From NCBI GenBank assembly GCA_043820265.1, contig JBDREA010000117.1, forward strand, positions 1 through 46,701: a DNA stretch of 46,701 bases, given 5' to 3'. Source of the stretch: Candidatus Altiarchaeota archaeon. Its GTDB lineage: Archaea > Altiarchaeota > Altiarchaeia > IMC4 > JBDREA01. The notes beneath the pieces were generated by a model that did not search any database, had not been told where the DNA came from, and saw only the letters and a program-made list of their open reading frames with translations. The position numbers and the translations under genes were made by a program. Shown here piece after piece: positions 5,583 through 44,787 of the stretch. The stretch's first letter is position 1. Each line of letters opens with the position of its first letter.

Positions 5583-8500
5583 TCATAAGCTGACATACAG
5601 GCTTATCAGGTTCCATCCGGTTTCTAAGTTTAGGTCCAGATCAAGTATTCCGAGTCCTCCTCCGAGCGTGAATGTGCTGAGCTGTGTGACTTCCGCCCAG
5701 AGGTAGTTTTCTTCTGTGTTTATCCCGTTTGAGTTTACTATTGGGTGTGTTTCGTTTAGAAGCTGCCATTCGGATACTGTCGTGTTGTATCTGTAGATTC
5801 CGAGGTCTGATTCGGCGAGCCCGGATGATGCGAGTTCGGCGTCTGTGTAGTAGAATTTTATGAGTACTGAGTCTAGTGCATCTGTCAGTTCGGAATCCAT
5901 CTCGATTGTGATGAATTTGCCTAGACCTAAGAGTGTATAGTTTCCTGTTGTGTCGTTTCCGGATACTGTGACCGTGACGTTTGCGTTTGAGACGTTTGCG
6001 TGCGTTGTAATTTCTAGGACAGTATCTGTACCAGATGAATAAACGATTTTAGTTGAACCATTTGTCGTATTTGTAGTTGTGGTCACTGTGATGTTTTCGA
6101 CTACTTCAAAGCTCGCAGTCTCGGTTGCGTTAATGTTTCCGAAGGTGTCGTTTGCCACTATCCTGACAGTGTAGTTTCCGATCTGATCTGTACTTGTGAA
6201 ATACCCCGTATATGTAGGTGAAGAACTTGACATACCTACCAATTCATTTGATGCATCAGGCATGCTAACGTTTGCTCTAACAGTTGATACTTCGGAGTCG
6301 AGGTCTGTTACTGAAGCTGAGATTGAGACTGGGACTCCGTTTACTATAGGATTGGGACTTACTTGCAATGCATAAACTTGGGGGGGTACATCATCGATTA
6401 ACCAGCCAAAGTAGTCTTCGAATGGGTGGTGGTCCATCACCCATGATAATCCGCTTACGTTGAATGGTTGGCTTCCGTTTGATGGATTTCCGGTAACTGA
6501 ATGATTATCGTAGTAATTGCCACCGATTGATGCGCTCAGGTTCCAATGGTTGCCTACACCGTCGAATGCATGGGTTGTTGTGCTACCGATGAAGTTATTG
6601 TGGAAAATGCTATTGTTGTTCGCACCTGTTGATGTATAAGCTCCATAATCATTTTGCATTAGGGTGTTGTTCATGAATTCGTTGTGGTCTGAGTAGTAAA
6701 AGTAGACCCCAGCATTACTTGATTGAATTGAATTTTTCGTCATCATGTTTCTGTCACTGTAATACAGATAGATTCCTGCATCGCTTGTTCCCTCTGAGTG
6801 GTTCTCCAGATCGTTCTGAGTCATTGTATTGGAGGATGAACTGTAGAGATATATTGCTGAATCACTGCCTCCCGCCGATCCATCCTGGTTTGAATGGGCA
6901 GTGTTTTTTGATATTATGTTGAAGTTGGAGGCATAGATGTACAATCCATGGTCTTGATTATTGCTCGCAGTATTTTCCAGAATTTCATTGTAGTTGGAAT
7001 AGTACAAGTAGATGCCGTAGTCAGAGTTAGAGTTAAAAGAGTTATTTCTTATTGTGTCGTTGTGGGAATAGTAATAGTACAATCCAGTTTCGCTTAACCT
7101 CACAGTGTTGTGTTCGATAATGTTGTTTGAAGATGATGAACTAATATAGATCCCGATGCTGTAGTTTAGGAATGTGCAATTCCTGATTGTCACGTTGCTT
7201 TTTCCATTGAGATATACCCCATATCCTGCATTCGACCCGTAAATGAAGGATCCGTTACAATCCAAGGTGACATGAGATGCGTTTATAATAATCGCTCCAT
7301 CAGTTTCAGGGTCCGGAAGGTTCTTTGCCCAGCCATCAAGGATTGTATCTGAGTTGATGTATAACTCGGGTATCTGAGGTAACGTCAGGTTGAGAGTAGT
7401 ATTCTGTCCTGCCGTCACGTTGGTTTGGGTTGTGTTACCAAAAAGGTTTACGCTGTGTTTTGCCGCAGCTGTAACATTGTATGTTCCGGTCTTGAGTCGG
7501 ATTATTTCATAGTGTCCGCTTGAATTCGTGCTGTCTGAACCTGAACTTGGGCCTCCACTCAAAGAGATGGAGAGTGAGGTTACAGGATTCCCATTGACAT
7601 CAGTTACTCTTCCTAGAATCATTCCTCCCGTTGGTTGGGTTATGTTGTAGTAAACGACTTGTCCTGAGGAAACATTTACTGTGCCGGCCGAAGAGTTTTC
7701 GATATAGTTGCCACTACCGGGAGGTGTTATAGTGAGGTTGTATGTTCCGTTCAGTCTCTCAAAGAGATATGTTCCATTGACGTCTGAATAATCGTTTGCC
7801 GAGCCTGAACCTGTGATGTAGACGAGGGCGTTGTAGACGGATGAGCCGTTCTCGGCCAATACTGTGCCAGTAAGGATTCCTCCGGGGGGTAGTGTGACGT
7901 TTCCGTCGAATACCTGCCCATAGCTCACTTCGAGTGTGGTAGAGTTAGAAAGTAGATTCGGTCCTGAAGGCGGAGTAACTGTCATTGTATAGTTGCCGGG
8001 TGTGAGTCGGTTGAAGGAATAGTGCCCACTGGCATTTGAGTATATAGTTCCAGAGCTTGGGCCGCTTTTCACAACTTTAGCGTTGTAGATGGGCGTTCCG
8101 TTTCTGAATGATATGGCTCCAGATATTACTCCTCCAACCGGGACGGTCATGTTGAAGTGCGTGACCTGACCCAGGGTCACATTGACTGTTGTGGAATTCG
8201 AAAGATAGTTTGTAGAGGACGGAGGGTTAGCTGTTAGAAGATAGCTTCCTGTGCTTAGACGTGTGATGTTGTAGTGGCCGCTTGCGTTGGAGTAGTTAGA
8301 ACTGCTTGAGGTGTAGATGTATGTGTAGTTCACGAAGCTTCCGTTGGATGCGATGACCTGCCCTGCAATTGAGCCTCCAATTGGCAATGTTATGTTGTAG
8401 TAGGTTGTCTGATCTTTCACAACGTCAGCGGAGGACGAGTTAGACTTCAGGTTCGGGCCATCTGGCGGGGTGGCGGTTATGGATTTGGTCCCGGTCGTCA

Positions 8501-11500
8501 ATGCAGGTATAGTGTAACTTCCGTCAGTATCTGAATAATCATAGTAGACGCTGCTTATCTGGACGAGCGCGTTGTCTACTGGACTCCCGTCACTGTCAAA
8601 TACGTAACCTGCGAGTATTCCTCCTGTGATCAGGGTGAAGTTGAGGTTTCTTGTCTCACCTACAGATATGTTGATTATGGAGCTGTTCTCAAAGAAGTTG
8701 GATCCCAAGGGTGGCCCGGCATGGATATTGAGATTTGTCTGGTTTACCAGGATTGATAGTTTATAGTATCCGCTTGCATTCGTCACGTCGCTGTCGCTCC
8801 CATAGGACACTATGGATGAACCGATTGTGGTGCCGTTTTCGGCTTTGATGTAACCATGGACTATGCCAGAGGGTTGGAATTCGGTGTAGTTGTAAGCCGT
8901 TGTCGAATAGGCCTGCTCTAAGCTATTTGACCTGGTATCAGTTGAGTAGACATAGACGTTCTTCAAGAGGTATGGGCCATCAACCATGTTGCCATAGATA
9001 TACTGTCCGCTAAAGGACAAAGCCATACTTTGTTGCTGGTTGTTGTTGAAATAGGAGCTTCCCGAATCCCATTGTATCTCGTGGCCGGTTTGATCCACTA
9101 ATCTCGCATTGATTGAATAAGTCCCAGAATAACGGACTCTCACACCTACGGTTATCTCGAGTGTATCAAAAAAGGAATCGTTATTTGTATCAGTTGCGTT
9201 TTCTGTGTAGTTGCCTGTGAAGGTTACGTTCAATCCCTGGAATTCATCAAAGCCATAGGCGCTCGTCGAGTACGCATTTAACCTGTAACCTATCTGAGTG
9301 TTGTTTACATCATAGAGTATCAGGAATTTGAGGTTGTATGAGCCGTCTACGCTGTTGTCGTAGATCTCGACTCCCTCAAAGTAGAGGCTAACATTTGACA
9401 CACCATTAGTCAAATTTGAAAGGTTTGTGGCCCCAACTATGTAACTATTGTTTATGTCGTACAAGTAGCCCATCAGCAGATATGTTGAATTTGAGGAGAC
9501 GTTTATGCCAACATCTATTTTCAGGTAATTATAGTATCCGTCTGAGTCAGTGTCCACTCCTTCATCTTGGTATTCACCTGTGAATGCTGCTGATAAGGAT
9601 TGGAACTCATCAAAACTATACGCATTAGTCGTATAGTCGTTTTCAAGGTTTGTTACTAATGTGAAGTTTGTACTGTTCTGGAAGACATTGATTGTCACGT
9701 TGTAGGTCCCGTTAGAGATTTGAGCACGCCAGATATCTTCTCCTGTGATGTTGACTATCACGTTCTTTGTCTGATTGTTGAGGGTTTCGTTTACATTAGC
9801 TTGAGAGACATATGTCCCATCTTGACCGTAGACTATGACTTGAATCGTGTAGCTTTCGAGAGAGCTGTTTGTGTTTGTGGAGATGTTCATGTCGACGACC
9901 AGGAAGTTGTAGAATGAGTCTGAGTCTGTGTCTAGTCCATAGTCTGTGTAGGCGATCGAGACGTATGAATCCTCGGTTGTCTCGAAGTCCGAGGCGGAAT
10001 ATGCTGCTGTTTGATAGCTTCCCCTAGCAAAAACGATGTCTTCGCTGTTTTCTAGTGTGAATGTAACATTGTATGGCCCGTCTCTACCGGAACTCCTTAT
10101 CGTTTGACCGGCAAATACGAGCTCGAACGTGCCTGGAGAGGAGAACTCGAAGGTATCGCCTATACCCATTATCGTATGACCCACGGGATCTGTCAAGAGC
10201 CCTATGAGGCTGTAGGTTCCTGCTTCGGAGACTGTGGCATTTACTAATACTGTCAGGTTGTCGTAGAGTCCATTGCCGTTTCCGTCTGACACCGACTCAG
10301 TTGATCCTGTGAATGATGCTCCAGAGGACTCGAAGTCAGATGCGTTATAATTTTCTGTCGTGTAGGATGTCGAATCTGTGAACAGCGACTGCTCCTGGAG
10401 TGGGTCGTATGCTGAGGAGACATAGGAGCCGTTGCCATAGATCTCGAATCCCTTTACGGTGTATGGACCGTCTCGTCCGTTTGCATTTATCGTGCGTCCG
10501 TCAAATGACAGGTTGAAGGATTGCACACCAACAGGGAGCCAAGTTGTACTTTGGGCAAATGCTATATAGTTTGTATCCGAGTCGTAGAGCCCGCCTATCA
10601 GGGTGTAGTTTCCATCCTCTGAAACATTCACCTCCACAGAGACTGTTAGGTAATTATATTTTCCGCTGGCGTTCGTGTCTGTCCCCGAATCAGATATTGC
10701 TCCGGTGGTACCGATCAGGCCGTAGTCGAAGTTGCGAAAGCTATAATTTTCGCTTGTATTGTAGGGATTTTCCAGATATTCGTAGAGTGACGCATCATCG
10801 GTTTCCCAGTATAATTCACGTAGCTCAAGGGACCCGTTTAGATGGTTGGCATAGATGCATGAGGAGGGATAGATAAGGGACACATTCTGGATTCCCGAAG
10901 AGAGATTCGAGGAGTTAACGGCAAAGCAAAGGCTCGTAGATCCCTCTGAATTCAGGTATCCATATATGTAGTAAACACCATCTGAGGAGATGCTGACCTC
11001 AGCTGTGATGATTATACCATCAGCTAGTCCATCGCTATCGCCGTCGAAGGTGCCCTCCCCAAAGACGCCAGTAAAGCCGACAGGATCCACTCCGCCCCGT
11101 CCTTTCCAAGTGGTGACGTTAAAGCCGTGTCGGCGAAAGACCGCCTTCGCCCAGGTGACATTCACGGATGGATGGTCGTTTGTGTAGTTAAGGAAAAAGT
11201 CTTTTCCTGTGGGCGGACCGGCACGCCCGGATTTTAAGAGGGTGGTAATAACCTTGTTGCCGCCCGGTTGAGTAATTGGGCCGCGGTCGAGGGTCCACCA
11301 GACGTCAGCCAGCGACCACGCCGACGCATCCTCGACCATCAGTGTGTCAGTCGTCATGTCGTGGTTCCATCCCGCGCTTCCATGTGGGCTTCCGTCGTTT
11401 CGTGCGAGGCATGAGGCGAAGTTGGCAAAGTTCTCGCCTAAGCGATCCTCCTTTGTCTTGTCTCCTGTATTTCCTGGACCATACGGGAAGTTGTCGCTTG

Positions 11501-12986
11501 GAGGCTTTATTCGGTGACCGTATTCGTGGCTAGTGCTATGGGTACCCCATCCCTGTGCGACTTGGAGGCGGGTGTGGTGGAGGTGTAAGGTGTTGGTGCC
11601 TGTGGAATAGTATGAGCTGGTATGGTCGTTGTCGCCGATCTCACAGTCCATAGTAAAACCGATTTCGAAGTTTATGGGCGCCTGCTTCCAGTAAAGGTAA
11701 GCCTGAGTTGCAGAATGATAGGTGCTGCCGCCCTCCTGGGCATTGTATTGGAGGTTTTTACTCGCATAGTCGCGATCTTTTATTAAGGGATTTGCGACGG
11801 AGACCTCCTTGGATATTGGAACAGCATTGGCTGCCTTCGCCACAGCGTCGCCCCATGAGGTCTCGTGTATCATTCGCATCTTGATGTTTGACGTCTTTTT
11901 TGTGGGGGAGAACTCGAGGCTGCCGTTGATCCTTCCAGGTTTACCTTCGTCGATGTCGTTCATTGCTAGGTTAATTGCATAATCTCCGTTGTCGTCGGTG
12001 AATGTGGTCCACTTCGTCACCCAATTTCCTCCATCCTGTTGTTGGTACATCACCTTCATCCGCTTGAGAGGATTGGTAGCGCTTTGGGTCTCAGTCATCC
12101 TACCTGTTACCTTGAATGTTTCTCCGCGATTGTTGTTTTCGTCAGTTTCGTCTATTGCATTGCTGGGATCAGCTATCACTTCGAACTTGTAGTTTCCGAT
12201 ATCAAAGGCCGTGAACCTGTGTGTCACAAGCTTGAATGTGCCTGCAGCAATCGTGCCTACGTTTTCTATCTTTTGCTCGAATGGGGAACCGAGATAAGTC
12301 CCTATAACTCGAACATTAACATTCTCCGCATCTGTTTCCCCTTTATTTCTTACCCGTGAAATCATCTCGTAGCGGTTGTTTCCGATGCGTCCAATCTCGA
12401 TTTCTGAGCCGTTGACAAAGAGGTCTATGTCTTCGAATTCAACTTCAAGTTCGGCCCAATCTACTCCAAGGCACCAGCACCCTGTTCCAAGAGTGTCAAT
12501 GAAGACTAGAACCTCGTTGGTGCCGTTTATGACGTAATAAGGATCGATAGTAAAGGAAACCGTACTCCACTGGTCTGTTGCCCCGGTTAGTATTCCAGCG
12601 TAATTTCCGTTGAAGTATACAGAATCTATTTCAGGTATTCCGTCACAACCTGATGTGGGATTGTCACAATCATAAGCCCTCACTGTGAGGATTGCAGAAG
12701 TTATGGTCGACATGTTAATGTCTGAAATATCGAAGGTTACTGTATGAAGACCTGGAGGATAGATGCAGCTACTACCGGTGCCAGTATAACCACGATACTT
12801 GCGGGTAGTCGTGGTTCCAGAGGTTACAGTTACATCATTGCTAGGCCCACTATAACTTAGAATACTCATGCCTGAGGATTCAGGTGGAAAATCTCTATCA
12901 TCGGCTGAGACAGTTATGCAGAAGGAAAAATTTACTAGTAAAATGATAAGAAATAGGCCGAATAATCTCTTGCCCCCCTTTGCCAA
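5583..12986 (-). CDS. Giant (2467 aa) secreted modular surface/adhesin-like protein: CARDB-like domain, HExxH-containing region, six ~120-aa modules, six carboxypeptidase-regulatory-like (PEGA-type) domains, a PbH1 beta-helix and an Ig-like C-terminal region
   Basis: A single uninterrupted ORF. Signal peptide KRLFGLFLIILLVNFSFCITVSA. CARDB-like NKGETDAENVNVRV...DETDENNN. HEYGH at nt 11514-11528. The repeats are described as separate features. N-x-S/T sequons are extremely dense. The first canonical start is TTG at 12986; there is no upstream in-frame ATG before a stop. Confidence 0.85.
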   Translation of the reverse strand: MAKGGKRLFGLFLIILLVNFSFCITVSADDRDFPPESSGMSILSYSGPSNDVTVTSGTTTTRKYRGYTGTGSSCIYPPGLHTVTFDISDINMSTITSAILTVRAYDCDNPTSGCDGIPEIDSVYFNGNYAGILTGATDQWSTVSFTIDPYYVINGTNEVLVFIDTLGTGCWCLGVDWAELEVEFEDIDLFVNGSEIEIGRIGNNRYEMISRVRNKGETDAENVNVRVIGTYLGSPFEQKIENVGTIAAGTFKLVTHRFTAFDIGNYKFEVIADPSNAIDETDENNNRGETFKVTGRMTETQSATNPLKRMKVMYQQQDGGNWVTKWTTFTDDNGDYAINLAMNDIDEGKPGRINGSLEFSPTKKTSNIKMRMIHETSWGDAVAKAANAVPISKEVSVANPLIKDRDYASKNLQYNAQEGGSTYHSATQAYLYWKQAPINFEIGFTMDCEIGDNDHTSSYYSTGTNTLHLHHTRLQVAQGWGTHSTSHEYGHRIKPPSDNFPYGPGNTGDKTKEDRLGENFANFASCLARNDGSPHGSAGWNHDMTTDTLMVEDASAWSLADVWWTLDRGPITQPGGNKVITTLLKSGRAGPPTGKDFFLNYTNDHPSVNVTWAKAVFRRHGFNVTTWKGRGGVDPVGFTGVFGEGTFDGDSDGLADGIIITAEVSISSDGVYYIYGYLNSEGSTSLCFAVNSSNLSSGIQNVSLIYPSSCIYANHLNGSLELRELYWETDDASLYEYLENPYNTSENYSFRNFDYGLIGTTGAISDSGTDTNASGKYNYLTVSVEVNVSEDGNYTLIGGLYDSDTNYIAFAQSTTWLPVGVQSFNLSFDGRTINANGRDGPYTVKGFEIYGNGSYVSSAYDPLQEQSLFTDSTSYTTENYNASDFESSGASFTGSTESVSDGNGNGLYDNLTVLVNATVSEAGTYSLIGLLTDPVGHTIMGIGDTFEFSSPGTFELVFAGQTIRSSGRDGPYNVTFTLENSEDIVFARGSYQTAAYSASDFETTEDSYVSIAYTDYGLDTDSDSFYNFLVVDMNISTNTNSSLESYTIQVIVYGQDGTYVSQANVNETLNNQTKNVIVNITGEDIWRAQISNGTYNVTINVFQNSTNFTLVTNLENDYTTNAYSFDEFQSLSAAFTGEYQDEGVDTDSDGYYNYLKIDVGINVSSNSTYLLMGYLYDINNSYIVGATNLSNLTNGVSNVSLYFEGVEIYDNSVDGSYNLKFLILYDVNNTQIGYRLNAYSTSAYGFDEFQGLNVTFTGNYTENATDTNNDSFFDTLEITVGVRVRYSGTYSINARLVDQTGHEIQWDSGSSYFNNNQQQSMALSFSGQYIYGNMVDGPYLLKNVYVYSTDTRSNSLEQAYSTTAYNYTEFQPSGIVHGYIKAENGTTIGSSIVSYGSDSDVTNASGYYKLSILVNQTNLNIHAGPPLGSNFFENSSIINISVGETRNLNFTLITGGILAGYVFDSDGSPVDNALVQISSVYYDYSDTDGSYTIPALTTGTKSITATPPDGPNLKSNSSSADVVKDQTTYYNITLPIGGSIAGQVIASNGSFVNYTYIYTSSSSNYSNASGHYNITRLSTGSYLLTANPPSSTNYLSNSTTVNVTLGQVTHFNMTVPVGGVISGAISFRNGTPIYNAKVVKSGPSSGTIYSNASGHYSFNRLTPGNYTMTVTPPSGPNLLSNSTTLEVSYGQVFDGNVTLPPGGILTGTVLAENGSSVYNALVYITGSGSANDYSDVNGTYLFERLNGTYNLTITPPGSGNYIENSSAGTVNVSSGQVVYYNITQPTGGMILGRVTDVNGNPVTSLSISLSGGPSSGSDSTNSSGHYEIIRLKTGTYNVTAAAKHSVNLFGNTTQTNVTAGQNTTLNLTLPQIPELYINSDTILDGWAKNLPDPETDGAIIINASHVTLDCNGSFIYGSNAGYGVYLNGKSNVTIRNCTFLNYSIGIYISSSSSNNIIEHNTVRLSETGLYYYYSHNDTIRNNSFNSNSDYGIYLYYSNYNEILENTASNNQDHGLYIYASNFNIISKNTAHSNQDGSAGGSDSAIYLYSSSSNTMTQNDLENHSEGTSDAGIYLYYSDRNMMTKNSIQSSNAGVYFYYSDHNEFMNNTLMQNDYGAYTSTGANNNSIFHNNFIGSTTTHAFDGVGNHWNLSASIGGNYYDNHSVTGNPSNGSQPFNVSGLSWVMDHHPFEDYFGWLIDDVPPQVYALQVSPNPIVNGVPVSISASVTDLDSEVSTVRANVSMPDASNELVGMSSSSPTYTGYFTSTDQIGNYTVRIVANDTFGNINATETASFEVVENITVTTTTNTTNGSTKIVYSSGTDTVLEITTHANVSNANVTVTVSGNDTTGNYTLLGLGKFITIEMDSELTDALDSVLIKFYYTDAELASSGLAESDLGIYRYNTTVSEWQLLNETHPIVNSNGINTEENYLWAEVTQLSTFTLGGGLGILDLDLNLETGWNLISLYVSL
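6417..7304 (-). repeat. Internal PbH1/NosD-like beta-helix repeat region of the giant protein (aa ~1895-2190)
   Basis: Repeated units (NVTIRNCTFLNYSIGIYISSSSSNNIIEHNTV, NNSFNSNSDYGIYLYYSNYNEILENT, NNQDHGLYIYASNFNIISKNT, and others), similar to the 2804..3766 protein. Confidence 0.75.
7377..8873 (-). repeat. Six tandem ~83-aa carboxypeptidase-regulatory-like domains (aa ~1372-1870)
   Basis: Each unit starts GG[IVM][IL].G.V....G.P/S and contains the N-[AS]-SG-[HY]-Y....L..G.Y core, for example SNASGHYNITRLSTGSY, SNASGHYSFNRLTPGNY and NSSGHYEIIRLKTGTY. Confidence 0.75.
8877..11069 (-). repeat. Six tandem ~115-130-aa modules of an unrecognised family (aa ~634-1368)
   Basis: Modules are delimited by the recurring AY[SGN].[SD][DE]F[EQ] motif. 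Each contains D[TG][DN]..G.Y[ND].L.[VI].V..[NS]VS..G.Y.L.G.L.D and a later G.DG.Y motif. Confidence 0.7.
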
Positions 12987-23830: not shown

Positions 23831-24682
23831 TTATTCATTTGGTTTTGTTGCAACAATCAGTTTGTAGTTTCTGAGATAGCTGAGTGGTGGCACTGAACCA
23901 ATAGCTCCAGCGTGTTCGATTGCGCCTGGATTAACTCTTCTCGTCTTAACTTCATAGCCTAGTTCTCTAAGTAACCTCTTCAAATGCCTACCCCCTCCCT
24001 GATAGATTAAACCTTCTCTTTCGAGGTTTACACTCTTTTCGGGTGCAGAATCTTCGGATTTTGGATGCACCCCCATAGCTTTGCGAGTTTTCTTGGAGCC
24101 TATTGAATACCCATGTGTGAGGATGAAAATCTTCCCCCCAGGCCTTAATACCCTGTCGGCTTCCGCAAGGGTTTTTCGATGATCCATGTGGCCGATTGAT
24201 TCGGGATACAGGATTCCATCAAAGCTCTGATCCGGGAACATTAACTCTTCTCCACTCATTTGATGGGCTTCTAGTCCCCTCTCCTTGGCTTTGGATATAA
24301 ATTCATCTACAAGCTCAACTCCCGTTACATTAAACCCTCTTGCGATTAGAATTCGTTCAATATGCGCTGTGCCAAATCCTATGGAAAGCAAATCAGATTT
24401 ATCTTGCATGCCCCTAATTATTCTATCTGCAACCCAATCACCAAAACCAGGATAACGCACAATATCCGAGAGGAAGCGATCACCCCCACCATATGGATGT
24501 CGCCTATGGGGGCTGACCACAGCCCTTCGGGCGAAGACACCATATGTTGCTCGAGTGTGGCTTTCACGCCTACCAGTGTGAAGTAGTTCATCTACTTGAG
24601 ATTGTCTCGGAGATGTTGCAACGGCTTTATCGACAACTTGATGTGTTGTTGTCCTCCTATTCCTTACCTGGACATCTGCCAT
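23831..24682 (-). CDS. Class I SAM-dependent methyltransferase (Methyltransf_11-like) with an Arg/His-rich N-terminal extension
   Basis: LLSIGFGTAHIE (motif I variant), VTGVELVDEFI, PDQSFDGIL and LRPGGKIFI. The true start could be internal. Confidence 0.65.
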   Translation of the reverse strand: MADVQVRNRRTTTHQVVDKAVATSPRQSQVDELLHTGRRESHTRATYGVFARRAVVSPHRRHPYGGGDRFLSDIVRYPGFGDWVADRIIRGMQDKSDLLSIGFGTAHIERILIARGFNVTGVELVDEFISKAKERGLEAHQMSGEELMFPDQSFDGILYPESIGHMDHRKTLAEADRVLRPGGKIFILTHGYSIGSKKTRKAMGVHPKSEDSAPEKSVNLEREGLIYQGGGRHLKRLLRELGYEVKTRRVNPGAIEHAGAIGSVPPLSYLRNYKLIVATKPNE

Positions 24683-24735: not shown

Positions 24736-25632
24736 ATGATGGAAGTTAAAGGAACACTCATCGAGGACACATATTGCGAAGCGTTTGACGGACTATGTTC
24801 GAGGTTGATGATAACTGCACTTGACGAAAAACGAGTTAAAAGAGCTGCCTATGATTCTACCGCACTTCCTTGCACGGTTTTCGGCGAGGCCGAGGGAGGC
24901 GTGGAGAAGTTTCTCTCGGAGGATGAGACTCCCGACGGCCGGCCCGGAGCTATCATCCAGTTGTGGGTTGGAAAGTCAAAAAAGGCCCGCGAACAGTTGG
25001 AGTATGAACTCGGAAAAAGGATTCGCCAAGGAATTCTCGTAGTCCCCACTTCTAGCGTTTACAATGCATTAGACTCAGATGAAAAATTCGATACCATGTT
25101 TCGCATCGGTAACTGCGGGGACGGATACGAATTCGTTGAGGAATACAAAGGGAGGACGATGATCAATGTCCCCATCATGATGGGTGCGTTCCGGATTGAA
25201 AAAGAGGTTGGGATCGCACCCGGTATTATGGGCGGCAATCTCTGGTTCATGTGCGACTCAGAAATAAACGGGCTTAAGGTCTGCGACATCGCAGGGAAAG
25301 CGGTGGAGAAAATTGAAGGAGTCGTCGCGTCATTTCGGGAAGGATGTTCTGCAGGAAGCAAGGCAGGGGGAAAATACGAACACATCGGGCCCTCGACGAA
25401 TCACCCGTTCTGCCCCACCCTAAAAGGAAAAATCAGCGACTTCGAAGTCCCAGACGGAGTCGAATCCATCCCAGAAATCGTCCTAAACGGATTGACACTG
25501 GAAAATGTAAAGGAAGCAATGGCATCGATCATGAAAGAAATCGCGGGAACCGAAGGACTTATAAAGATCAGCGCAGGAAACTACGGCGGAAAACTGGGAA
25601 GACACCACATACAACTAAAGGATTTGGCTTGA
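24736..25632 (+). CDS. ftr: Formylmethanofuran:tetrahydromethanopterin N-formyltransferase
   Basis: The N-terminal IEDTYCEAF....SRLMITA and the C-terminal KISAGNYGGKLGRHHIQLKDLA closely match the remembered Ftr sequences (IEDTFAEAF...; KISAGNFGGKLGQYEIHLHDLF). Length 298 aa. Confidence 0.9.
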   Translation: MMEVKGTLIEDTYCEAFDGLCSRLMITALDEKRVKRAAYDSTALPCTVFGEAEGGVEKFLSEDETPDGRPGAIIQLWVGKSKKAREQLEYELGKRIRQGILVVPTSSVYNALDSDEKFDTMFRIGNCGDGYEFVEEYKGRTMINVPIMMGAFRIEKEVGIAPGIMGGNLWFMCDSEINGLKVCDIAGKAVEKIEGVVASFREGCSAGSKAGGKYEHIGPSTNHPFCPTLKGKISDFEVPDGVESIPEIVLNGLTLENVKEAMASIMKEIAGTEGLIKISAGNYGGKLGRHHIQLKDLA

Positions 25633-25645
25633 GATTATCCATTTT

Positions 25646-25668
25646 TATAGTTATATTCTATAGTTATA
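25646..25668 (+). promoter_or_regulatory. Direct repeat TATAGTTATA x2 (3-nt spacer) immediately upstream of vapB; candidate TATA box and/or antitoxin operator
   Basis: Read directly at 25646-25655 and 25659-25668. The ATG is at 25672. Confidence 0.4.
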
Positions 25669-25671
25669 GTT

Positions 25672-25872
25672 ATGGCAACGAGTATTATGGTCGACGAACG
25701 GACGCTTCAGACCCTAAAGGAGTTGAAGTCAAAGTATCAGGCGAAAAGCTACGACGAAACACTGACTTATCTCATCACCAAGACCACGGACATTCCTAAA
25801 TCTAATTTTGGCACCCACCCCCGCATGAAGTCCTTCACCCGAAAAGACAGGAGCAGCTTCCATGACCTCTAG
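25672..25872 (+). CDS. vapB: VapB-type antitoxin (archaeal COG1753/PF02697-like)
   Basis: IMVDERTLQTLKELKSKYQAKSYDETLTYLI matches the I.v.ee....L..lK....Sy.e.i..Li pattern. It is 66 aa and overlaps the downstream PIN gene by 11 nt. Confidence 0.7.
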   Translation: MATSIMVDERTLQTLKELKSKYQAKSYDETLTYLITKTTDIPKSNFGTHPRMKSFTRKDRSSFHDL

Positions 25873-26251
25873 ATACGTCATCGACTCCTACGCCTGGATA
25901 GAATACTTCAAAGGTAGCAAAGCGGGAGAGCAAGCAAAAAGGTACATCGAAGAGGAGGTATCACTCACACCCGCCATCGTGCTCGCAGAATTATCTGACA
26001 AATACACCCGCGACGGACTCGACTTCCTCGAAGACGACCTCTCCTTCATCCGCTCCAAATCTCAGATAATCCCCTTAGACGGAGACCTCGCCCACAAAGC
26101 AGGCCTCCTCAACGCCACCATGCGCAAAGAAGTCCCCGGGTGGGGCATGGCCGACTCCATCATACTCGCCATCGGCCAAAAACACAACGCCCAAGTCGTC
26201 ACCGGCGACAAACACTTCGAAAAAATCAAAGAAGCAATCCTCATAGACTAA
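25862..26251 (+). CDS. vapC: PIN-domain ribonuclease toxin VapC
   Basis: The acidic residues are placed as in PIN domains (VIDSYAW, LAELSDK, MADSIILA, VTGDKHF). 129 aa. Confidence 0.8.
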   Translation: MTSRYVIDSYAWIEYFKGSKAGEQAKRYIEEEVSLTPAIVLAELSDKYTRDGLDFLEDDLSFIRSKSQIIPLDGDLAHKAGLLNATMRKEVPGWGMADSIILAIGQKHNAQVVTGDKHFEKIKEAILID

Positions 26252-26254
26252 AAA

Positions 26255-26309
26255 AACTACAGCGGCAAACTCGGACGACACCCTCATACAACTCAAAGAA
26301 CTCATATAA
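26255..26309 (+). pseudogene. Remnant copy A of the ftr 3' end (encodes NYSGKLGRH, then a +1 nt shift, then LIQLKELI-stop)
   Basis: Aligns to ftr 25579-25632 (NYGGKLGRHHIQLKDLA-stop) with substitutions and one extra C at 26282. Positions 26267-26303 are identical to 28539-28575. Confidence 0.75.
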
Positions 26310-26372
26310 TAGAAAACAATCCCTCTTCTATTTCTCGGCTTCCCCCTGTTTCAATAACCTGCCCCCACATTT

Positions 26373-27083
26373 TTAACACGCGCTTTCTCGAACAAGTTTG
26401 TATATTTTACCTTCAGAGAATACTAGTTCGGTTGGGAAGCACTTGAGACTTCTTCTTCCAATTTCATCACTGCAGGGGATGGTGTGTATTATGGCTCCCC
26501 TTGGAAGAAGTATTCCCTTAACCCCAAATACATTTTTCTGATTTCTACTCTTCAGGAAAAATAAGTGTACTTCATATGTCTCCTCGCCTTTATTTGTTAA
26601 TGATTCTACTTTTTCGATTGTGAAATTGTTTTGGATATTCACCATATAGGTGTCTACTGGTTTGAGTTCTTCAGCTGTAAGGGGTGCCCCAGAAGCATAT
26701 TTCACATATATGGGGTCAAAATAGGTATGATACTTTCCATACAATGAATCTGGGTCATCAAATAAATCTTCTGAGGATTCCACTGTGTTATTCATGAGTA
26801 AACTCTTTGCAGTATCCACCGGTGAAACAATAGTGTCTCTAATCCAATTCTTTACAACTCGCTGCACCTCATCTTCTGACCCTAATGGAAGCGCATAAGT
26901 ACCAACTTCAACCTTTTCGTCAAATACATCGCATGCTGGCACTCCGCCTACCTTTAAAGCATCTTCTCTTCTTTTCTCTACTGCCAGGGGATGCAAGACG
27001 TAAACATAAAAAACAACGATGAGAGCAATTCCAAGTACCCCAACTACCAAAAAATGTCTTTTGTCCACAAAAATTCCCCCCAT
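26373..27083 (-). CDS. Hypothetical membrane-anchored protein (236 aa, N-terminal TM helix)
   Basis: ATG start, TM segment FLVVGVLGIALIVVFYVYVL, no recognisable family. Confidence 0.55.
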   Translation of the reverse strand: MGGIFVDKRHFLVVGVLGIALIVVFYVYVLHPLAVEKRREDALKVGGVPACDVFDEKVEVGTYALPLGSEDEVQRVVKNWIRDTIVSPVDTAKSLLMNNTVESSEDLFDDPDSLYGKYHTYFDPIYVKYASGAPLTAEELKPVDTYMVNIQNNFTIEKVESLTNKGEETYEVHLFFLKSRNQKNVFGVKGILLPRGAIIHTIPCSDEIGRRSLKCFPTELVFSEGKIYKLVRESAC

Positions 27084-27183
27084 TTCATAGTAACCGATTA
27101 GGATTATCCTTTATAATTTTTGAGGAACGTTAGGTCTACTGTTAACTGGTCCCATGGGGGTTATTCTTCGATGACTGTGGAAA

Positions 27184-28401
27184 TTATTTTTTGAGGTTGG
27201 GTATGAATTTTGCGAAGGGGGTGTAGTAGGTGTTTTCTTTTTGTTTTTCGAATTCGAGTGAGAGGACGTATCCTTTTGGGGGTTTGTATTTTTCCCTGAA
27301 GCTGTGGTAGGAGCGTGTGAGTTTTTCGGATTTGAGGGCGGATTTTAATTCGACGGGTATGGGTTTTCCGTTGTCTTCGAGTATGAAGTCGACTTCGGCC
27401 TGCGACTTTGTGCGCCAGTATCGGGGGGTTACCCGGTTTTTTAGTAGTTCGGAGTAGATGAAGTTTTCGTAGAGGGCTCCGCGGTCGGTTCTCTCCTGCG
27501 AAAAGTTGTCGATGCATGTGTTTCTGAATCCTGTGTCGGTGAAGTAGATCTTGGGGGATTTGACGAGTTCTTTTCGTTTGTTGGTGTAGTAGGGGGTGAC
27601 TGGCTTGCAGATGTAGGTTTTGTCGAGGACGTTGAGGTGTTTTTTGAGGTCTGCGTAGGAGAGGCCTGTCGTCTCCGAGAGGCTGGCGTACTCGAGGGTT
27701 TGTCCTATCTGAAGCGAGAGTGTTTTGAGGAGTGTTGTAAGTTTGTAGTCTTCGCTTAAATCGAGGAGTTCTCTGATCTCCCGAAGGAGGAGGGTGTCGT
27801 AGATGTTTTCGAGGATGATTTTCTTTTCGTCTTCGTCTTTTTCGGTTACGACCCTGGGGAAGCCGCCGTACAAGATGAATTCGTGTAGGTGGTTGTTGAG
27901 TGTCGTCAATATCTCGGTTTTATAGGTTGCCCTGTCGTAGAGGGGGACAAGTCGCGGTTCTTTTGCCCGGAGGAATTCGCGGAAGCTGAAGGGGTAGAGT
28001 TCGAGTATGACGATGCGTCCAACGAGGTATTTGAGGCTCTGCACGGATATGTCTGCGGCTGAGGAGCCCGAGATGAAGACCTTAACGGGTTGGGTGTCGT
28101 GGAGGTATTTCAGCTTTTTGCCGCCTTCCTTTGAGTAGTGGACCTCGTCTATGAACAAAAAGTCGTAGTCCGCCGCGTACAATTCGATGAATGAATCGAT
28201 GTCTTCTTCGAAGAGGCGGAGGACTTTGAGGTTGTCGAAGGATACGCGTGAGACCCGTAGGCCTTTAGCTTCTTGGTCGTCGAGTATTTTGTTGACGAGC
28301 GTGGTTTTGCCGCACTGCCTTACGCCGACGACGGCTATTATTTCTTTCTTGGCGAGGTACTTGGATATTTGGTCTTCAAGGTCCCTTTCAACATATTTCA
28401 T
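27184..28401 (-). CDS. AAA+ ATPase of the AAA_14 + DUF4143 type
   Basis: Walker A GVRQCGKTT, Walker B FLFIDEVHY, and a C-terminal block (YENFIYSEL...EVDFIL) typical of DUF4143 ATPases. Confidence 0.8.
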   Translation of the reverse strand: MKYVERDLEDQISKYLAKKEIIAVVGVRQCGKTTLVNKILDDQEAKGLRVSRVSFDNLKVLRLFEEDIDSFIELYAADYDFLFIDEVHYSKEGGKKLKYLHDTQPVKVFISGSSAADISVQSLKYLVGRIVILELYPFSFREFLRAKEPRLVPLYDRATYKTEILTTLNNHLHEFILYGGFPRVVTEKDEDEKKIILENIYDTLLLREIRELLDLSEDYKLTTLLKTLSLQIGQTLEYASLSETTGLSYADLKKHLNVLDKTYICKPVTPYYTNKRKELVKSPKIYFTDTGFRNTCIDNFSQERTDRGALYENFIYSELLKNRVTPRYWRTKSQAEVDFILEDNGKPIPVELKSALKSEKLTRSYHSFREKYKPPKGYVLSLEFEKQKENTYYTPFAKFIPNLKK

Positions 28402-28404
28402 GTT

Positions 28405-28456
28405 AATAATAACCCAGCCATTATTTAAAAATTATTTGAAATGGCAGGGTTATTAT
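28405..28456. repeat. 17-bp inverted repeat (one mismatch), AATAATAACCCAGCCATT ... AATGGCAGGGTTATTAT, immediately upstream of the ATPase start
   Basis: Read directly. Candidate operator or element-end structure. Confidence 0.6.
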
Positions 28457-28532
28457 GAACTTACTCTCTTGTCGGCTTCGCATTCGAGTCAGGCGCCAAA
28501 TTCCTCGACACCCCTCTTCGTCGGCACGTTTA

Positions 28533-28587
28533 AACGGAAAACTCGGACGACACCCTCATACAACTCAAAGAACTCTTTTACAAGTGA
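28533..28587 (+). pseudogene. Remnant copy B of the ftr 3' end (NGKLGRH, then a +1 nt shift, then LIQLKELFYK-stop)
   Basis: Has the same 37-nt core and the same extra C (28554) as copy A. It diverges from A on both flanks. Confidence 0.75.
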
Positions 28588-28599
28588 GAATCTCAAGAA

Positions 28600-29172
28600 T
28601 CAAACCCAGAGAAGAGGGGATAACGCAACGAACCCTAAGAAAAATTCCCCTATCAATCCACAGATAATGGAAAAATAGAGAGCAAAGATATAATCCAATA
28701 TCTTCTTTTTCCCCACCATCGTACTGAAACCCACTCTCAAAAATCCCCCATATAGGAGAAAGAGGAACCAATACAAGAGAACCTTGTATTCTGAGAACTG
28801 GATATAATGGAAAGGAGAGATTATTGCATGGATTGAGAATATCAAAAGGAGTGCAGGAAGAGAAAAACAGAGCATATTGAAGACCTTATTGAAGCCATAC
28901 ATTCCAGCTGTGAAAATGTGTGCTAAAACAGATGCAAGGAGAATCCAAGCAATAATCGGAATTAGAAACATGATCCCAAAACTTATCCCTAATATGATTG
29001 CGTAGTCGATTACTCTTGAGTCCTCTTCGATTGCAGGGGAAAAAATGATCAAGTAGATAATGGAGAGAAGTGCAATACCAGTCACAAGAGATAGAAGGAT
29101 ACAAAGTATAGGGGATACATATCCTTTTTGAGGAACTTGAGAATAATAGGCTGTTAATGGTGATCGGATCAT
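28600..29172 (-). CDS. Polytopic membrane protein (190 aa), family unknown
   Basis: About five hydrophobic helices and an ATG start. It lies 18 nt downstream of the radical SAM gene on the same strand. Confidence 0.6.
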   Translation of the reverse strand: MIRSPLTAYYSQVPQKGYVSPILCILLSLVTGIALLSIIYLIIFSPAIEEDSRVIDYAIILGISFGIMFLIPIIAWILLASVLAHIFTAGMYGFNKVFNMLCFSLPALLLIFSIHAIISPFHYIQFSEYKVLLYWFLFLLYGGFLRVGFSTMVGKKKILDYIFALYFSIICGLIGEFFLGFVALSPLLWV

Positions 29173-29190
29173 TGTTAAAGATTATTCTTT

Positions 29191-30378
29191 TTATAATAAT
29201 TGCAGATCCACTGTCAGCTGGTCCCAGGTTGGGTATTCTTCGACGATTGTTGGTGTTAGTCCTTTTTCCTTCAACTCTTTTTCTAGTTCTTCGACGACTT
29301 GGATGCTTGTTAGTATTCTAAGTTTTTTTTCGTCTACGAAAAGGAGTTCTGGAGGGATGTCGTATTCTCTTTGTAGGAGGGTTTTGTTTTTTTGGAGTAT
29401 TTGGAGGAGTTGTTTCTTTTTTTGAGGAGTTAGTTTTTCGATTTTTTCGTTGAAGCCAAATGAGGGTTTGAGTTCCTCCAGATAGATTGCTCCGCGAATT
29501 AGTAATCCTTCCTTTGTGATTACATCGAATTCTTTCGACACATTTTTCGCTGCCCTCTTTAACCTGTTGCCGACCTGGAACCGATCCTTTAGAGTTACTG
29601 TGCAGTAGTGGACTCGGAGGTTTGTTTCTTTTGCGCAGAATTTTAGGAGGTCGTTGGCTGCTTTTTCAACTCCCAGAATCGAAAACGAAAGGTCGTCTCT
29701 TGTTTTGTAGCCTTTGCGTTCAACAGCGGTTACGTTTGTATAGGATGTCTCGAATTCGTTGAGGTTTAGAAAATCAACTCCGATTTCATCAAGATATCTG
29801 ATAAAATCCTTTGTCTTCTCGATTTCTTTTGGGAGAACCGGTATCTCTGCGCCGACGCTCCAGTCAAATTCCAATGCTTTTTTTATTTTATCCCAATCCT
29901 TTTTCGCTGGATGGAATCTTATTTCATCTAAGCCTGCTTTATAGAGCTGTCTGAGATTTTGAGGAGTGGCCCCTCTTCCTGATGTGTATAGGTGAATGTG
30001 GAAGCCGTCGCCGAATTCGTTTTTTAGGAGCTTGAGATAGGATATCGTTCGGTTGATTTTTACCAGGGGATCGCCGCCGGTGAATCCCGCTCCAGTGGCA
30101 CTGATAAGCTTTGCCTCTTCAACTATCTCATTTCGTTTACGGGTGGGGCGTTCATTAGCATATACGACATCCTTGTTTTTCTTTTTTTCAGACAGGGGAC
30201 AATACCAGCATCTTCGAGGGCACAAACCGGTTACGAACAAAACCAATTTTTCGCCTTTGACGCAACGACGGCAACCTTCTGGCAGTTTCCCTATCCTTTT
30301 TGATGAATACTGTGTATCAACGATTTTTCTCATACGAGGTAGGCATAGGAATTCTTTACTAAATATAACTTCATTCAC
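29191..30378 (-). CDS. Radical SAM protein, COG2108-like (related to pyruvate formate-lyase activating enzymes)
   Basis: CVKGEKLVLFVTGLCPRRCWYCPLS contains CxxxCxxC. GTG start overlapping the upstream stop (GTGA); an alternative ATG is at 30333. Confidence 0.75.
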   Translation of the reverse strand: MNEVIFSKEFLCLPRMRKIVDTQYSSKRIGKLPEGCRRCVKGEKLVLFVTGLCPRRCWYCPLSEKKKNKDVVYANERPTRKRNEIVEEAKLISATGAGFTGGDPLVKINRTISYLKLLKNEFGDGFHIHLYTSGRGATPQNLRQLYKAGLDEIRFHPAKKDWDKIKKALEFDWSVGAEIPVLPKEIEKTKDFIRYLDEIGVDFLNLNEFETSYTNVTAVERKGYKTRDDLSFSILGVEKAANDLLKFCAKETNLRVHYCTVTLKDRFQVGNRLKRAAKNVSKEFDVITKEGLLIRGAIYLEELKPSFGFNEKIEKLTPQKKKQLLQILQKNKTLLQREYDIPPELLFVDEKKLRILTSIQVVEELEKELKEKGLTPTIVEEYPTWDQLTVDLQLL

Positions 30379-43618: not shown

Positions 43619-43999
43619 ATGTCCGATCCTTTGTTCAACTTAGCCTTAACGACTTGCATCGTCGGCCTACTTCTCTTGTCATATGCCGGACAAACATTAA
43701 CACCAGCAAAAATCAGGCTAAAAGATATTAGCATAGAGGATGTCGGAAAAAACATATTAGTCTCAGCTGATGTGTCTGAGATACACCAGTTTGAAGGCGG
43801 CTCAATCCTCCTTACCATAACCGGGGACAACTCCTCGATGAAAACATATATACCCTACCACGTATCAAAGGAAATTAAAATTGACATAGAAGAAATTGAA
43901 AACTGCACTCTTGAAATACTTGGCGAGCTCCAAACCTACCAAGGAGAACTCGAACTCGTCGTAGCAGACATTGAGGATATAAAAATCGAAAAATGTTAG
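43619..43999 (+). CDS. Membrane-anchored OB-fold (tRNA_anti-like nucleic-acid-binding) protein
   Basis: N-terminal TM LALTTCIVGLLLLSYA, then the typical OB pattern ILVSADVSEI....GGSILLTITGDNSSMKTYI...LEILGELQTYQGELELVV. It overlaps the next gene by 7 nt. Confidence 0.6.
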   Translation: MSDPLFNLALTTCIVGLLLLSYAGQTLTPAKIRLKDISIEDVGKNILVSADVSEIHQFEGGSILLTITGDNSSMKTYIPYHVSKEIKIDIEEIENCTLEILGELQTYQGELELVVADIEDIKIEKC

Positions 44000-44787
44000 T
44001 CTCCGCTTCAACTCTAAGTGAATACAACTTCTGCCCAAGGGCAATCTATCTTAGAAAGTCCCTGGGCTTCGGATCCGAGAAAACCGAAAAGATGCAGGAA
44101 GGCCTAATGAGCCACTTAGTAAGAAAAGAGCTTTCGCTGAGACAGGCAAAGATCATAAGGAGGGTGAAGGACGTCGAAGAAATAGGTTTGCTTCTCAATC
44201 GCGAGCTCGCCCAGATAATCAAAGAGATTCCCACCATCTACAAGGAGAGACTGGAGGGAATGGACGCTAACAAATTGCTTGCCAAAATCGAAGGAGACAT
44301 AAAAAATGAGCTACAATTCCAAGAAGAGCACTTGGCTGTAATGGTGGACGAACTCGGTTTAAAGGAAACGCTCACCTACATCACTCCCTGGAAGGTCGAA
44401 TACCCGCTAAGATCCGAGATACTCGGACTTTCAGGTCGCATCGATAAAATCTATCGAAACGAAAGCGAATCCTATCCCGTCGAGATAAAAACCGGCACCG
44501 CCCCAAAAGAATACACGTGGGAGGGAGACAGGATCCAAGTGGGCGCCTATGCTCTGCTCCTCGAGGAAAAACTCGCCCAAACCATAAGATACGCCAAAGT
44601 CGAATACACCCAGTCAATGGAGCAAAGGCCGGTGAACATAACCGAAAAACTCAGAAGACTAGTATTCGAAACAAGAGACAACGTAACATACATATTAGAA
44701 GAAAAAATAATCCCCGAAATCTGCGTCCACGGCCAAGGGAAAAAATGCCACAACTGCGGATACAAAGAAAAATGCTACAGCATGTGA
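43993..44787 (+). CDS. Cas4-family / RecB-like PD-(D/E)xK nuclease with a 4-Cys Fe-S cluster (solo, no CRISPR-cas context)
   Basis: N-terminal SASTLSEYNFCPRAIYL, the nuclease core GRIDKIY....YPVEIKTG, the QVGAYALLL (Q..Y) motif and the C-terminal C-x8-C-x2-C-x5-C (CVHGQGKKCHNCGYKEKC). Confidence 0.8.
   Translation: MLVSASTLSEYNFCPRAIYLRKSLGFGSEKTEKMQEGLMSHLVRKELSLRQAKIIRRVKDVEEIGLLLNRELAQIIKEIPTIYKERLEGMDANKLLAKIEGDIKNELQFQEEHLAVMVDELGLKETLTYITPWKVEYPLRSEILGLSGRIDKIYRNESESYPVEIKTGTAPKEYTWEGDRIQVGAYALLLEEKLAQTIRYAKVEYTQSMEQRPVNITEKLRRLVFETRDNVTYILEEKIIPEICVHGQGKKCHNCGYKEKCYSM

Follow-up and report, generated by a model that had tools for sequence, protein, structure and literature searches.

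The systems closest to the locus considered here, the gap between the convergent genes ftr and rad in a 46,701-nucleotide (nt) stretch from a Candidatus Altiarchaeota archaeon (hereafter, the window), are of several kinds. Archaeal SSV-type and pNOB8-type arrays, known under the term gene capture, have repeats of the target 3′ end, serial inserts, empty sites, and selfish cargo. Integron cassettes are small, recombinase-less units of one or two genes, commonly toxin-antitoxin (TA) genes, that end in a site-like sequence and stack behind a fixed point. The integrative mobile elements exploiting Xer (IMEX), which use the host Xer at dif, are integrase-less, mobilized in trans, mimic a chromosomal site, and form tandem arrays. 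At Rhs/contact-dependent inhibition (CDI) and type VI secretion system (T6SS) effector-immunity loci, strings of orphaned 3′ ends are found downstream of an intact gene; these arise by homology-facilitated illegitimate recombination, and no integrase is needed (PMC5361080). Finally, defense and TA islets in core-gene hotspots are usually ascribed to homologous recombination in the flanks, which leaves no gene-end relics. The ftr-rad gap has features of all of these. It is an insertion hotspot of a broadly familiar kind, without an integrase, and it has been filled in at least two different ways.

The differences are also clear. Compared to the SSV- and pNOB8-type arrays, the ftr-rad locus has neither an integrase nor a fragment of one, the repeat at the far end moves with the cargo rather than being a displaced native end, both convergent genes have repeated ends, and the units are tiny (0.7 to 2 kb). 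Integrons are set apart by IntI, attI, Pc, and the attC hairpin, all missing here, with no IntI anywhere in the window; our cassettes carry their own promoters, and the “site” reproduces a host gene end codon by codon. The target is a coding 3′ end rather than the dif-like palindrome used by IMEX; by inspection, no 11-6-11 palindrome is evident at the junctions, and there is no GC-skew switch at the locus. Unlike the Rhs/CDI and T6SS genes, ftr is metabolic and not a polymorphic toxin gene, its two orphan end copies share a frameshift, and the opposite flank is repeated as well. A short variable stretch flanked by housekeeping genes, carrying vapBC and a PDC-S01 gene and with occupancy that varies among relatives, is shared with the defense/TA islets, but here there are relics.

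The account that we tentatively prefer, at somewhat less than an even chance, is a mixed one. An integrase-less vapBC cassette with homology to its target, the ftr end, would have been mobilized in trans, and recombination between alternative fillings of the gap would then have duplicated the relic junction around an ATPase gene. The stop-to-stop gap is 3,558 nt, and the order within it is F0 (ftr), vapBC, A, hyp236, R′, ATPase, B, memb190 (with R″), and R0 (rad), where F and R denote copies of the ftr and rad ends. The window was compared with four loci of the same clade, L001 to L004; homologs of vapBC were also found in four unrelated contexts, L101 to L104. The features of the island and its flanks are these.

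24736 to 25632, plus strand: ftr, formylmethanofuran–tetrahydromethanopterin N-formyltransferase gene, intact (Pfam FTR and FTR_C; NCBIfam NF002554, 341 bits).
25579 to 25632, plus strand: F0, the native ftr end (last 18 codons).
25633 to 25671, plus strand: left end of the vapBC unit, TATA/operator-like, TTTTTATAGTTATA..TATAGTTATAGTT (identity to L002; element upstream of the homologs in L101 to L104).
25672 to 25872, plus strand: vapB-like antitoxin open reading frame (ORF), 66 residues, with an 11-nt overlap with vapC (ORF listing; conserved position).
25862 to 26251, plus strand: vapC, PIN-domain toxin gene (Pfam PIN, E = 1.3e-15).
26252 to 26314, plus strand: relic A, a frameshifted copy of the ftr end and the right end of the vapBC unit (alignment).
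26373 to 27083, minus strand: hyp236, a 236-residue AT-rich ORFan with an N-terminal membrane anchor (ORF listing; one hydrophobic segment).
27101 to 27192, minus strand: R′, a dead copy of the rad end (last ~18 codons plus tail; repeat D2).
27184 to 28401, minus strand: ATPase gene, 405 residues, AAA_14/DUF4143, candidate defense family PDC-S01 (Pfam, PADLOC).
28402 to 28460, no strand: palindrome just before the start codon of the ATPase gene (I3, a 21-nt inverted repeat at 90%).
28461 to 28532, no strand: spacer that separates relic B from the control region of the ATPase gene (not significantly similar to ftr or to the fetched loci).
28533 to 28587, plus strand: relic B, a second frameshifted copy of the ftr end (alignment, exact 37-mer, island-wide scan).
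28600 to 29172, minus strand: memb190, a 190-residue AT-rich multi-pass membrane ORFan (six hydrophobic segments); the first ~20 codons overlap R″.
29113 to 29161, minus strand: R″, a probable third copy of the rad tail, of the R′ type (local alignment with R′).
29191 to 30378, minus strand: rad, radical S-adenosylmethionine (SAM) gene, intact and convergent with ftr (Pfam Radical_SAM and Fer4_12; orthologs abut ftr in L001 and L003).
29191 to 29250, minus strand: R0, the native rad end.

The last 18 codons of ftr recur twice in the island, as A at 26255 to 26309 and as B. The ftr end and copy A aligned with a score of 51, compared to 20.4 ± 2.1 for the shuffled null (z = 14), and in a scan of the whole island, A scored 53 and B 45, with a 99th percentile of 29. 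The 37-mer AAACTCGGACGACACCCTCATACAACTCAAAGAACTC is present at exactly two sites in the window, 26267 to 26303 and 28539 to 28575, with 0 expected (100 shuffles). Both copies contain the same +1 frameshift, caused by one extra base: where ftr has GACA-CCACAT, A and B have GACACCCTCAT. They differ from one another at 3 of 46 positions, with divergence limited to the tails (that of B reads FYK-stop) and flanks. A sequence-only reading of this stretch had called attention to the three copies, to the identical 37-nt core, and to the common extra base with divergence only outside the core; it had also listed the contents of two cassettes, vapBC in one and, in the other, a DUF4143-type AAA+ ATPase with the N-terminally anchored hyp236. 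Our alignments and searches bear out all of these points. The shared frameshift would be impossible in a functional ftr end, and thus both A and B descend from a copy that was already dead.

Codon usage also separates the relics from native ends. Relics A and B and the relic in L002 share CTC-GGN-CGA and AAA-GAA-CTC, of which the short remnant in L004 keeps only the first part. The native ftr ends (5 of 5) read CTG/CTA/TTC..AGR/AAA..AAG GAY or similar, and the relic codons are absent from them. The sequence-only reading had allowed that the 37-mer might be a common dispersed repeat. Neither it nor the ftr-end repeat (GGCAAACTCGGNCGACACC..CTCAAAGAACTC) has a further copy in the window, the 104 loci that we fetched (~1.2 Mb) yielded the repeat only as the L002 relic, and the relic pattern was not found in IMG/VR. 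Gene-end relics are rare; a scan of 1,559 ORFs for others like these returned only paralog or insertion sequence-type repeats. Two extensions of the repeat were considered and dropped. There was no support for B reaching further into ftr than the accepted start of the repeat (P = 0.54), and a 10-mer “core,” TGAGAWTMTC, at the F0 and B junctions was too common to be of use. A marginal ftr-like stretch lies inside vapB (25717 to 25764; score of 31 against ftr 25553 to 25596, with the 99th percentile at 29) and is probably due to chance.

The comparison with L002 shows where the vapBC unit begins and ends. Identity between the window and L002 is 58 to 78% across ftr and is lowest near the 3′ end, the last 150 nt being the least similar; it rises from 58 to 70% in the adjoining part of ftr to 82 to 88% over 25633 to 25671, right after the ftr stop codon. 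It is then 75 to 93% over vapBC and ~80% over the relic, and it falls to the random level past 26314. Judged from this identity profile, the promoter, vapBC, and the relic (25633 to 26314) are a discrete unit of 0.68 kb with sharp edges. The VapC protein is 84% identical to that of L002. Although the vapB product has no Pfam or other family hit, the 66-residue ORF upstream of the PIN gene is conserved in L002, L101, L103, and L104, and the arrangement is that of a type II VapBC system, with a PIN toxin, a small overlapping antitoxin ORF upstream, and conserved operator-like repeats. The vapBC homologs in L101 to L104, 62 to 66% identical, have the same promoter/operator and no ftr-like tail. 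In the diverged hosts of the window and L002, vapBC sits at the identical nucleotide position, directly behind the ftr stop codon.

The unit also appears to be younger than the flanking host genes and the split between the hosts, judging from its substitutions. At four-fold sites, the window and L002 are 0.24 to 0.32 identical in ftr, the SLOG gene, and the prephenate dehydrogenase gene, which is at saturation, compared to 0.58 for vapB and 0.70 for vapC. Synonymous divergence (dS) is 0.37 to 0.48 for vapC and 0.72 to 0.88 for vapB and is saturated for ftr and the SLOG gene (>1.6 or undefined); nonsynonymous divergence (dN) is lower in vapBC than in ftr. Both vapC genes are strongly codon biased, and as a control, codons were shuffled within amino acids. 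The excess of identical codons that remained was z = 2.8 for vapC and z = 3.3 for vapB, compared to 0.2 to 1.2 for the three host genes; the raw value of 0.70 for vapC therefore overstates how young the gene is. The relic is ~80% identical between lineages in which synonymous sites of host genes are saturated. Taken together, the unit's edges, age, and position and the frameshift common to A and B favor a repeat that is borne by the unit over a succession of native ends. The sequence-only reading had suggested that mobile units carry the repeat; this suits the vapBC unit, given its boundaries, age, and relic codons, but not the second “cassette,” which contains a junction segment.

The four relatives show the site in different states. 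The ftr products are 74% (L001), 78% (L002), 84% (L003), and 76% (L004) identical to that of the window; those of L004 and L002 are 90% identical to each other. L001 and L003 are empty: ftr and rad are directly convergent, with a 3-nt gap in L001 and an overlap of 4 nt in L003. In L002, ftr is followed by vapB, vapC, an in-frame relic, NHGGKLGRHHIWLKELIK-stop, and then a different minus-strand membrane ORF. L004 has decayed. Here, ftr and the C-terminal half of vapB form one in-frame ORF (330 residues; L004 1035 to 2130), vapC is cut to ~80 nt, and a short ftr-end relic persists; there is also a scaffold gap of Ns at 2559 to 2569. The L004 vapB remnant is closer to vapB of the window than to that of L002, whereas by ftr L004 and L002 are sisters. 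Presence or absence of the cassettes thus does vary among relatives, as might be expected for insertions, but the empty site foreseen by the sequence-only reading, with ftr convergent with the gene at 28600 to 29172, was wrong, since ftr meets rad in L001 and L003. The site is polymorphic, and all 3,558 nt are accessory, including memb190, which that reading had not counted as part of the variable island.

Every ftr-end relic precedes a small membrane ORF on the opposite strand, and each time it is a different one (hyp236 and memb190 in the window; ~3152 to 3291 in L002; 2892 to 3311 in L004). The idea that these four ORFs are homologous to one another was rejected. In more distant Altiarchaeota, rad is not adjacent to ftr. 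A genome scan added one close locus, L004. When the metagenomes were scanned with the Rad protein, only relatives that were at most 48% identical were found, none with ftr adjacent, and the exact ftr and rad products of the window were found in no other contigs. The surroundings are those of an ordinary chromosome, with genes for threonine synthase, GalT, prephenate dehydrogenase, CdhD, an ECF transporter, HerA, and RNase HII, and are syntenic with L001; the best named homologs of ftr are from Candidatus Altiarchaeota.

One can ask whether the island is real. The window resembles a metagenomic contig, its Ftr and Rad proteins are not on record in other contigs, and the 37 identical bases of A and B lie exactly 2,272 nt apart, as they might if a free 2.27-kb circle (hyp236, R′, ATPase, and relic) or a second strain haplotype had been collapsed into the assembly through the shared 37-mer. 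A repeat of 37 nt is shorter than the usual final k-mers of assemblers and shorter than reads. The exact repeat is no longer than this and its flanks differ on both sides, the R′/ATPase junction holds no repeat that could mislead an assembler, and vapBC followed by a relic is seen independently in L002. We consider an artifact very improbable.

Other features near ftr may be mentioned here. In L003, the contig starts (1 to 72) with inverted ftr codons 2 to 25 beside the remaining ftr, which could be a contig-end chimera or an inversion. A SAM-methyltransferase gene (23831 to 24682, minus strand) lies between the SLOG gene and ftr in the window and in L004 and is absent in L001 and L002, where the SLOG gene overlaps the ftr start. 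This insertion upstream of ftr is a second indel polymorphism beside the gene and has no clear gene-end relics.

The opposite flank is repeated as well, which the sequence-only reading had missed. The 3′ end of rad at 29204 to 29250 recurs at 27132 to 27178, with 37 of 47 nt identical. The score of this copy, R′, was 44, compared to a null of 20.4 ± 2.1 (z = 11). It reads TVIEE-stop-PPWDQLTVDLTFL.. on the minus strand, where R0 reads TIVEEYPTWDQLTVDL; the homology to R0 runs past the stop codon into the short spacer, and R′ shares a 75-nt BLAST match with the rad end of L003. A third copy, R″, is probably present at 29113 to 29161, going by its local alignment with R′ (score of 33; null of 17.6 ± 3.0; 0 of 2,000 shuffles as high), and it barely exceeds the 99th percentile in the island-wide scan. 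Both R′ and R″ retain GTTCCTCAAAAA, which resembles the L003 tail CAATTCCTCTAA; R0 has CAATTATTATAA. With its start codon and first ~20 codons, memb190 overlaps R″, and relic DNA may have become a coding N terminus there.

We rejected a relationship between the F-type and R-type repeats, for which the sole signal is a short AT-rich motif. The motif AGATTATYC(N)TTTTTATA is found right after the ftr stop codon (25632 to 25649), in R′ (27102 to 27115), and at the rad stop codon and spacer (29179 to 29195); it also precedes the vapBC homolog in the unrelated locus L101 (~5766 to 5790). It may reflect true homology, in that joined cassette ends would mimic the ftr/rad junction, or equally, convergence on a TATA box.

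Since R′ lies between A and B, what had been taken for a second cassette holds a relic of the opposite flank. The gene-end copies are ordered F F R F R R, an interleaving for which a pair of cassettes set between three att copies is too simple a picture. The two halves of the island are alike: in each, a self-promoted cargo gene comes with an ftr-end copy, an unrelated minus-strand membrane ORF that is AT rich, and a rad-end copy. The stop codon of the ATPase gene lies directly against R′, and in the same way that of vapC lies against A. Serial att insertion confined to ftr, nesting of long target duplications, and the simple Campbell products in which a circle crosses over in F or R at an empty site do not fit the observed order. 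Two island variants joined head to tail, each consisting of cargo, an F copy, some other gene, and an R copy, do fit it; a circle that carried a junction segment and the ATPase gene and recombined into an already occupied site fits equivalently. The second “cassette” is better described as a duplicated or imported segment of the ftr/rad junction plus a candidate defense ATPase gene.

The ATPase matches Pfam AAA_14 and DUF4143 (E = 1.8e-28 and 6.1e-36) and PADLOC PDC-S01 (E = 4.8e-84) and has the features of PDC-S01/COG1373-type proteins; as a defense protein it is a candidate, on the strength of these matches. Its nearest homologs, 60 to 68% identical, are from DPANN archaea. The palindrome upstream of its start codon folds as RNA with z = −4.6, and the same hairpin precedes the 68%-identical homolog in an unrelated contig, L100 (~1160 to 1215); it is probably a promoter or operator. 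The hyp236 and memb190 proteins match no family in Pfam, NCBIfam, PADLOC, or PHROGs, and in the literature on DUF4143 and on Altiarchaeota mobile elements we found nothing specific. A+C at codon position 3 is 0.87 in vapC and 0.84 in the ATPase gene, the top two of the 43 ORFs in the window; the remainder are at 0.71 or below. Along with the conserved upstream elements that each gene carries, these extremes hint at a shared history for vapC and the ATPase gene. A common foreign donor for vapC, the ATPase gene, and the relics was considered on the basis of this A/C bias and dropped, in view of a gradient in host genes and of the L100 ATPase homolog, which lacks the bias.

We imagine the following for the preferred account. 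The vapBC unit would have moved between Altiarchaeota lineages and landed directly behind the ftr stop codon. Its ftr-like far end would belong to the unit itself, as a target mimic or att-like homology, and would not be a displaced native end. A circular form of the unit could recombine with the resident ftr end, with enzymes acting in trans, either host recombination functions or an unlinked recombinase; the direct repeats recreated in this way could later loop the unit out and restore the empty site. In the distal half, a segment of the old junction (ftr-end relic, small membrane ORF, and rad-end relic) would be present twice, with the self-promoted ATPase gene at the joint. Campbell-type or unequal recombination may have joined two alternative fillings of the gap, one with vapBC, relic, hyp236, and rad end and the other with ATPase, relic, memb190, and rad end. 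The repeats, the empty sites, the boundaries of the unit and its relative youth, and the lack of a recombinase in the window are observations; the circular intermediates, the action in trans, and the order of events are what we infer from them.

A number of results count against this account. No integrase, recombinase, or transposase Pfam hit was obtained for any of the 43 ORFs of the window (5 in the island and 38 others), so that the absence of a recombinase from the cassettes, as put forward in the sequence-only reading, extends well beyond them; a Xer-like gene is likewise missing from the window. By inspection, the junctions have no common crossover core, and the longest identical run between F0 and A is 9 bases. 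The relics do not form an attC-like hairpin (minimum free energy of −0.6 kcal/mol and z = +1.8 for A; z = +0.2 for B). In IMG/VR, scans returned no match to the relic, vapC, hyp236, the ATPase, or memb190. The evidence for the youth of the unit is moderate, and codon bias alone accounts for most of the raw synonymous identity of vapC. In most genes of the window, A+C at codon position 3 climbs from 5′ to 3′ (means of 0.51, 0.57, and 0.63); host genes thus show a weaker form of this gradient, and it is not a clean foreign marker. The repeats also seem to differ in age, given 3 differences in 46 positions between A and B and 10 in 47 between R′ and R0, such that a single duplication of the junction is insufficient; gene conversion or selection may have acted on A and B. 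What stands of the serial site-specific insertion scar that had been proposed is the insertion site; the missing crossover core, the missing relic hairpin, and the F0/A run of at most 9 bases do not support site specificity. Rfam gave nothing credible at the locus.

The same searches bear on a more classical explanation, the principal one of the sequence-only reading, in which integrase-encoding elements accreted in tandem at an attB in the ftr 3′ end and then decayed until just the att repeats and the addictive or selfish cargo, vapBC and the ATPase gene, were left. The direct repeats of the target 3′ end that flank the inserts and the unoccupied site in L001 and L003 are as expected for integrative elements. 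TA genes are typically the last survivors of decayed elements. Trapped integrated elements, such as those of suicidal SSV-type integrases, are documented in archaea (PMC7253208). However, there is no integrase remnant in the island or window and no identical attL/attR core. In a classical insertion, the element provides the copy joined to the gene, and the native end is the one displaced to the far side; in this locus, it is the distal relics that group together across lineages, apart from native ends, and that travel and co-vary with the vapBC cargo. Successive native ends could not share a frameshift, the interleaved rad-end copies are left unexplained, and decay would need to have stopped at one and the same left boundary in both the window and L002. 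This explanation seems improbable to us.

The number of loci counts against the preferred account as well. With only five from the clade, one ancient insertion of vapBC and a loss in L003 would be no costlier than two gains. If that one event duplicated the ftr end and the locus was inherited vertically from then on, the later steps would be a local tandem duplication of the junction between relic and rad end, acquisition of the ATPase gene at the joint, independent gains of hyp236 and memb190, and loss of the island through the repeats in L003. The near-identity of A and B suits a recent local duplication, and the tail features that R′ and R″ share are missing from R0, as this history would have it. 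Nevertheless, synonymous sites of the flanking host genes have diverged much more than vapBC and the relic have, the L004 vapB resembles that of the window more than that of its sister by ftr, and each junction copy would have had to receive, at the same point, a gene unrelated to that in the other. We find such a history quite improbable.

A further argument against the mixed account comes from L018, an independent lineage, in which a 31-nt segment of ftr (6036 to 6066) is repeated 1.55 kb downstream (7620 to 7650). The repeats bracket two small ORFs, one of 140 residues and one encoding a membrane/winged helix-turn-helix protein, and the distal copy keeps the canonical ftr tail, LRELAD-stop. 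With a 31-nt repeat of the same ftr codons, L018 was considered as a second att-type case and rejected. In L033, ftr is followed by a gene whose first 48 codons are, in L018, joined to the distal copy at a microhomology of 8 to 9 nt (CGGTAAAT), with no site-specific signature; the joined segment is a truncated copy of this neighbor with an internal stop codon. Illegitimate recombination thus does create ftr-tail scars of this kind.

One can envision that the island arose in that way, with no site specificity at all: homology-facilitated illegitimate recombination, unequal crossing over between divergent haplotypes, and local duplication would have left truncated ftr and rad ends behind. The order F F R F R R follows naturally from two tandem haplotype-like units, the mechanism and the strings of orphaned 3′ regions that it leaves are those described for T6SS/Rhs loci (PMC5361080), and the L018 duplication is an independent instance. 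Also, GC content at third codon positions in L002 ftr (1534 to 2433) drops from ~0.85 to ~0.5 over the last ~45 codons, which may mean that its 3′ end was imported. Yet a crossover within ftr should bring in donor ftr sequence, and identity between the window and L002 is not raised in the last 150 nt. Orphan ends produced by displacement would once have been functional; A and B, with their common frameshift and 37 identical bases, are at odds with such a history. Nor would one expect illegitimate events to insert vapBC at a single nucleotide position in two lineages. We therefore judge this alternative unlikely, if far from negligible, and continue to lean toward a vapBC unit with its own ftr-like end, followed by recombination between two fillings of the gap.

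A broader proposal is that Altiarchaeota carry integrase-less mini-cassettes, each with one promoter-bearing selfish or defense gene and a ~55-nt, codon-level mimic of a housekeeping 3′ end, that insert behind the stop codon, excise through their own repeats, and build arrays at convergent junctions. We regard this as doubtful; under the same doubt, such mini-cassettes would be a homology-guided or trans-catalyzed archaeal analog of integron cassettes. How small defense and TA genes enter core-gene hotspots without mobility genes is an open question in bacteria and almost unexplored in archaea. This locus shows all of the states together, with two empty sites, a single cassette, a decayed one, and a compound one, in addition to a 0.68-kb unit with edges sharp to the nucleotide. 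If a gene-end copy does target insertion, this would be a very simple mechanism of gene capture, and dead copies of gene ends that are themselves conserved could serve as a sequence signature by which to find such cassettes in metagenomes. If instead the copies are mere scars of illegitimate recombination, the locus is an ordinary yet instructive hotspot.

Elsewhere in the window, a Cas4-like PD-(D/E)XK nuclease is encoded at 43993 to 44787, with no CRISPR array in view. A beta-helix protein contains Thr/Ser-rich repeats with a 12-nt period (3480 to 3683), and a single ORF of 2,467 residues occupies 5583 to 12986.

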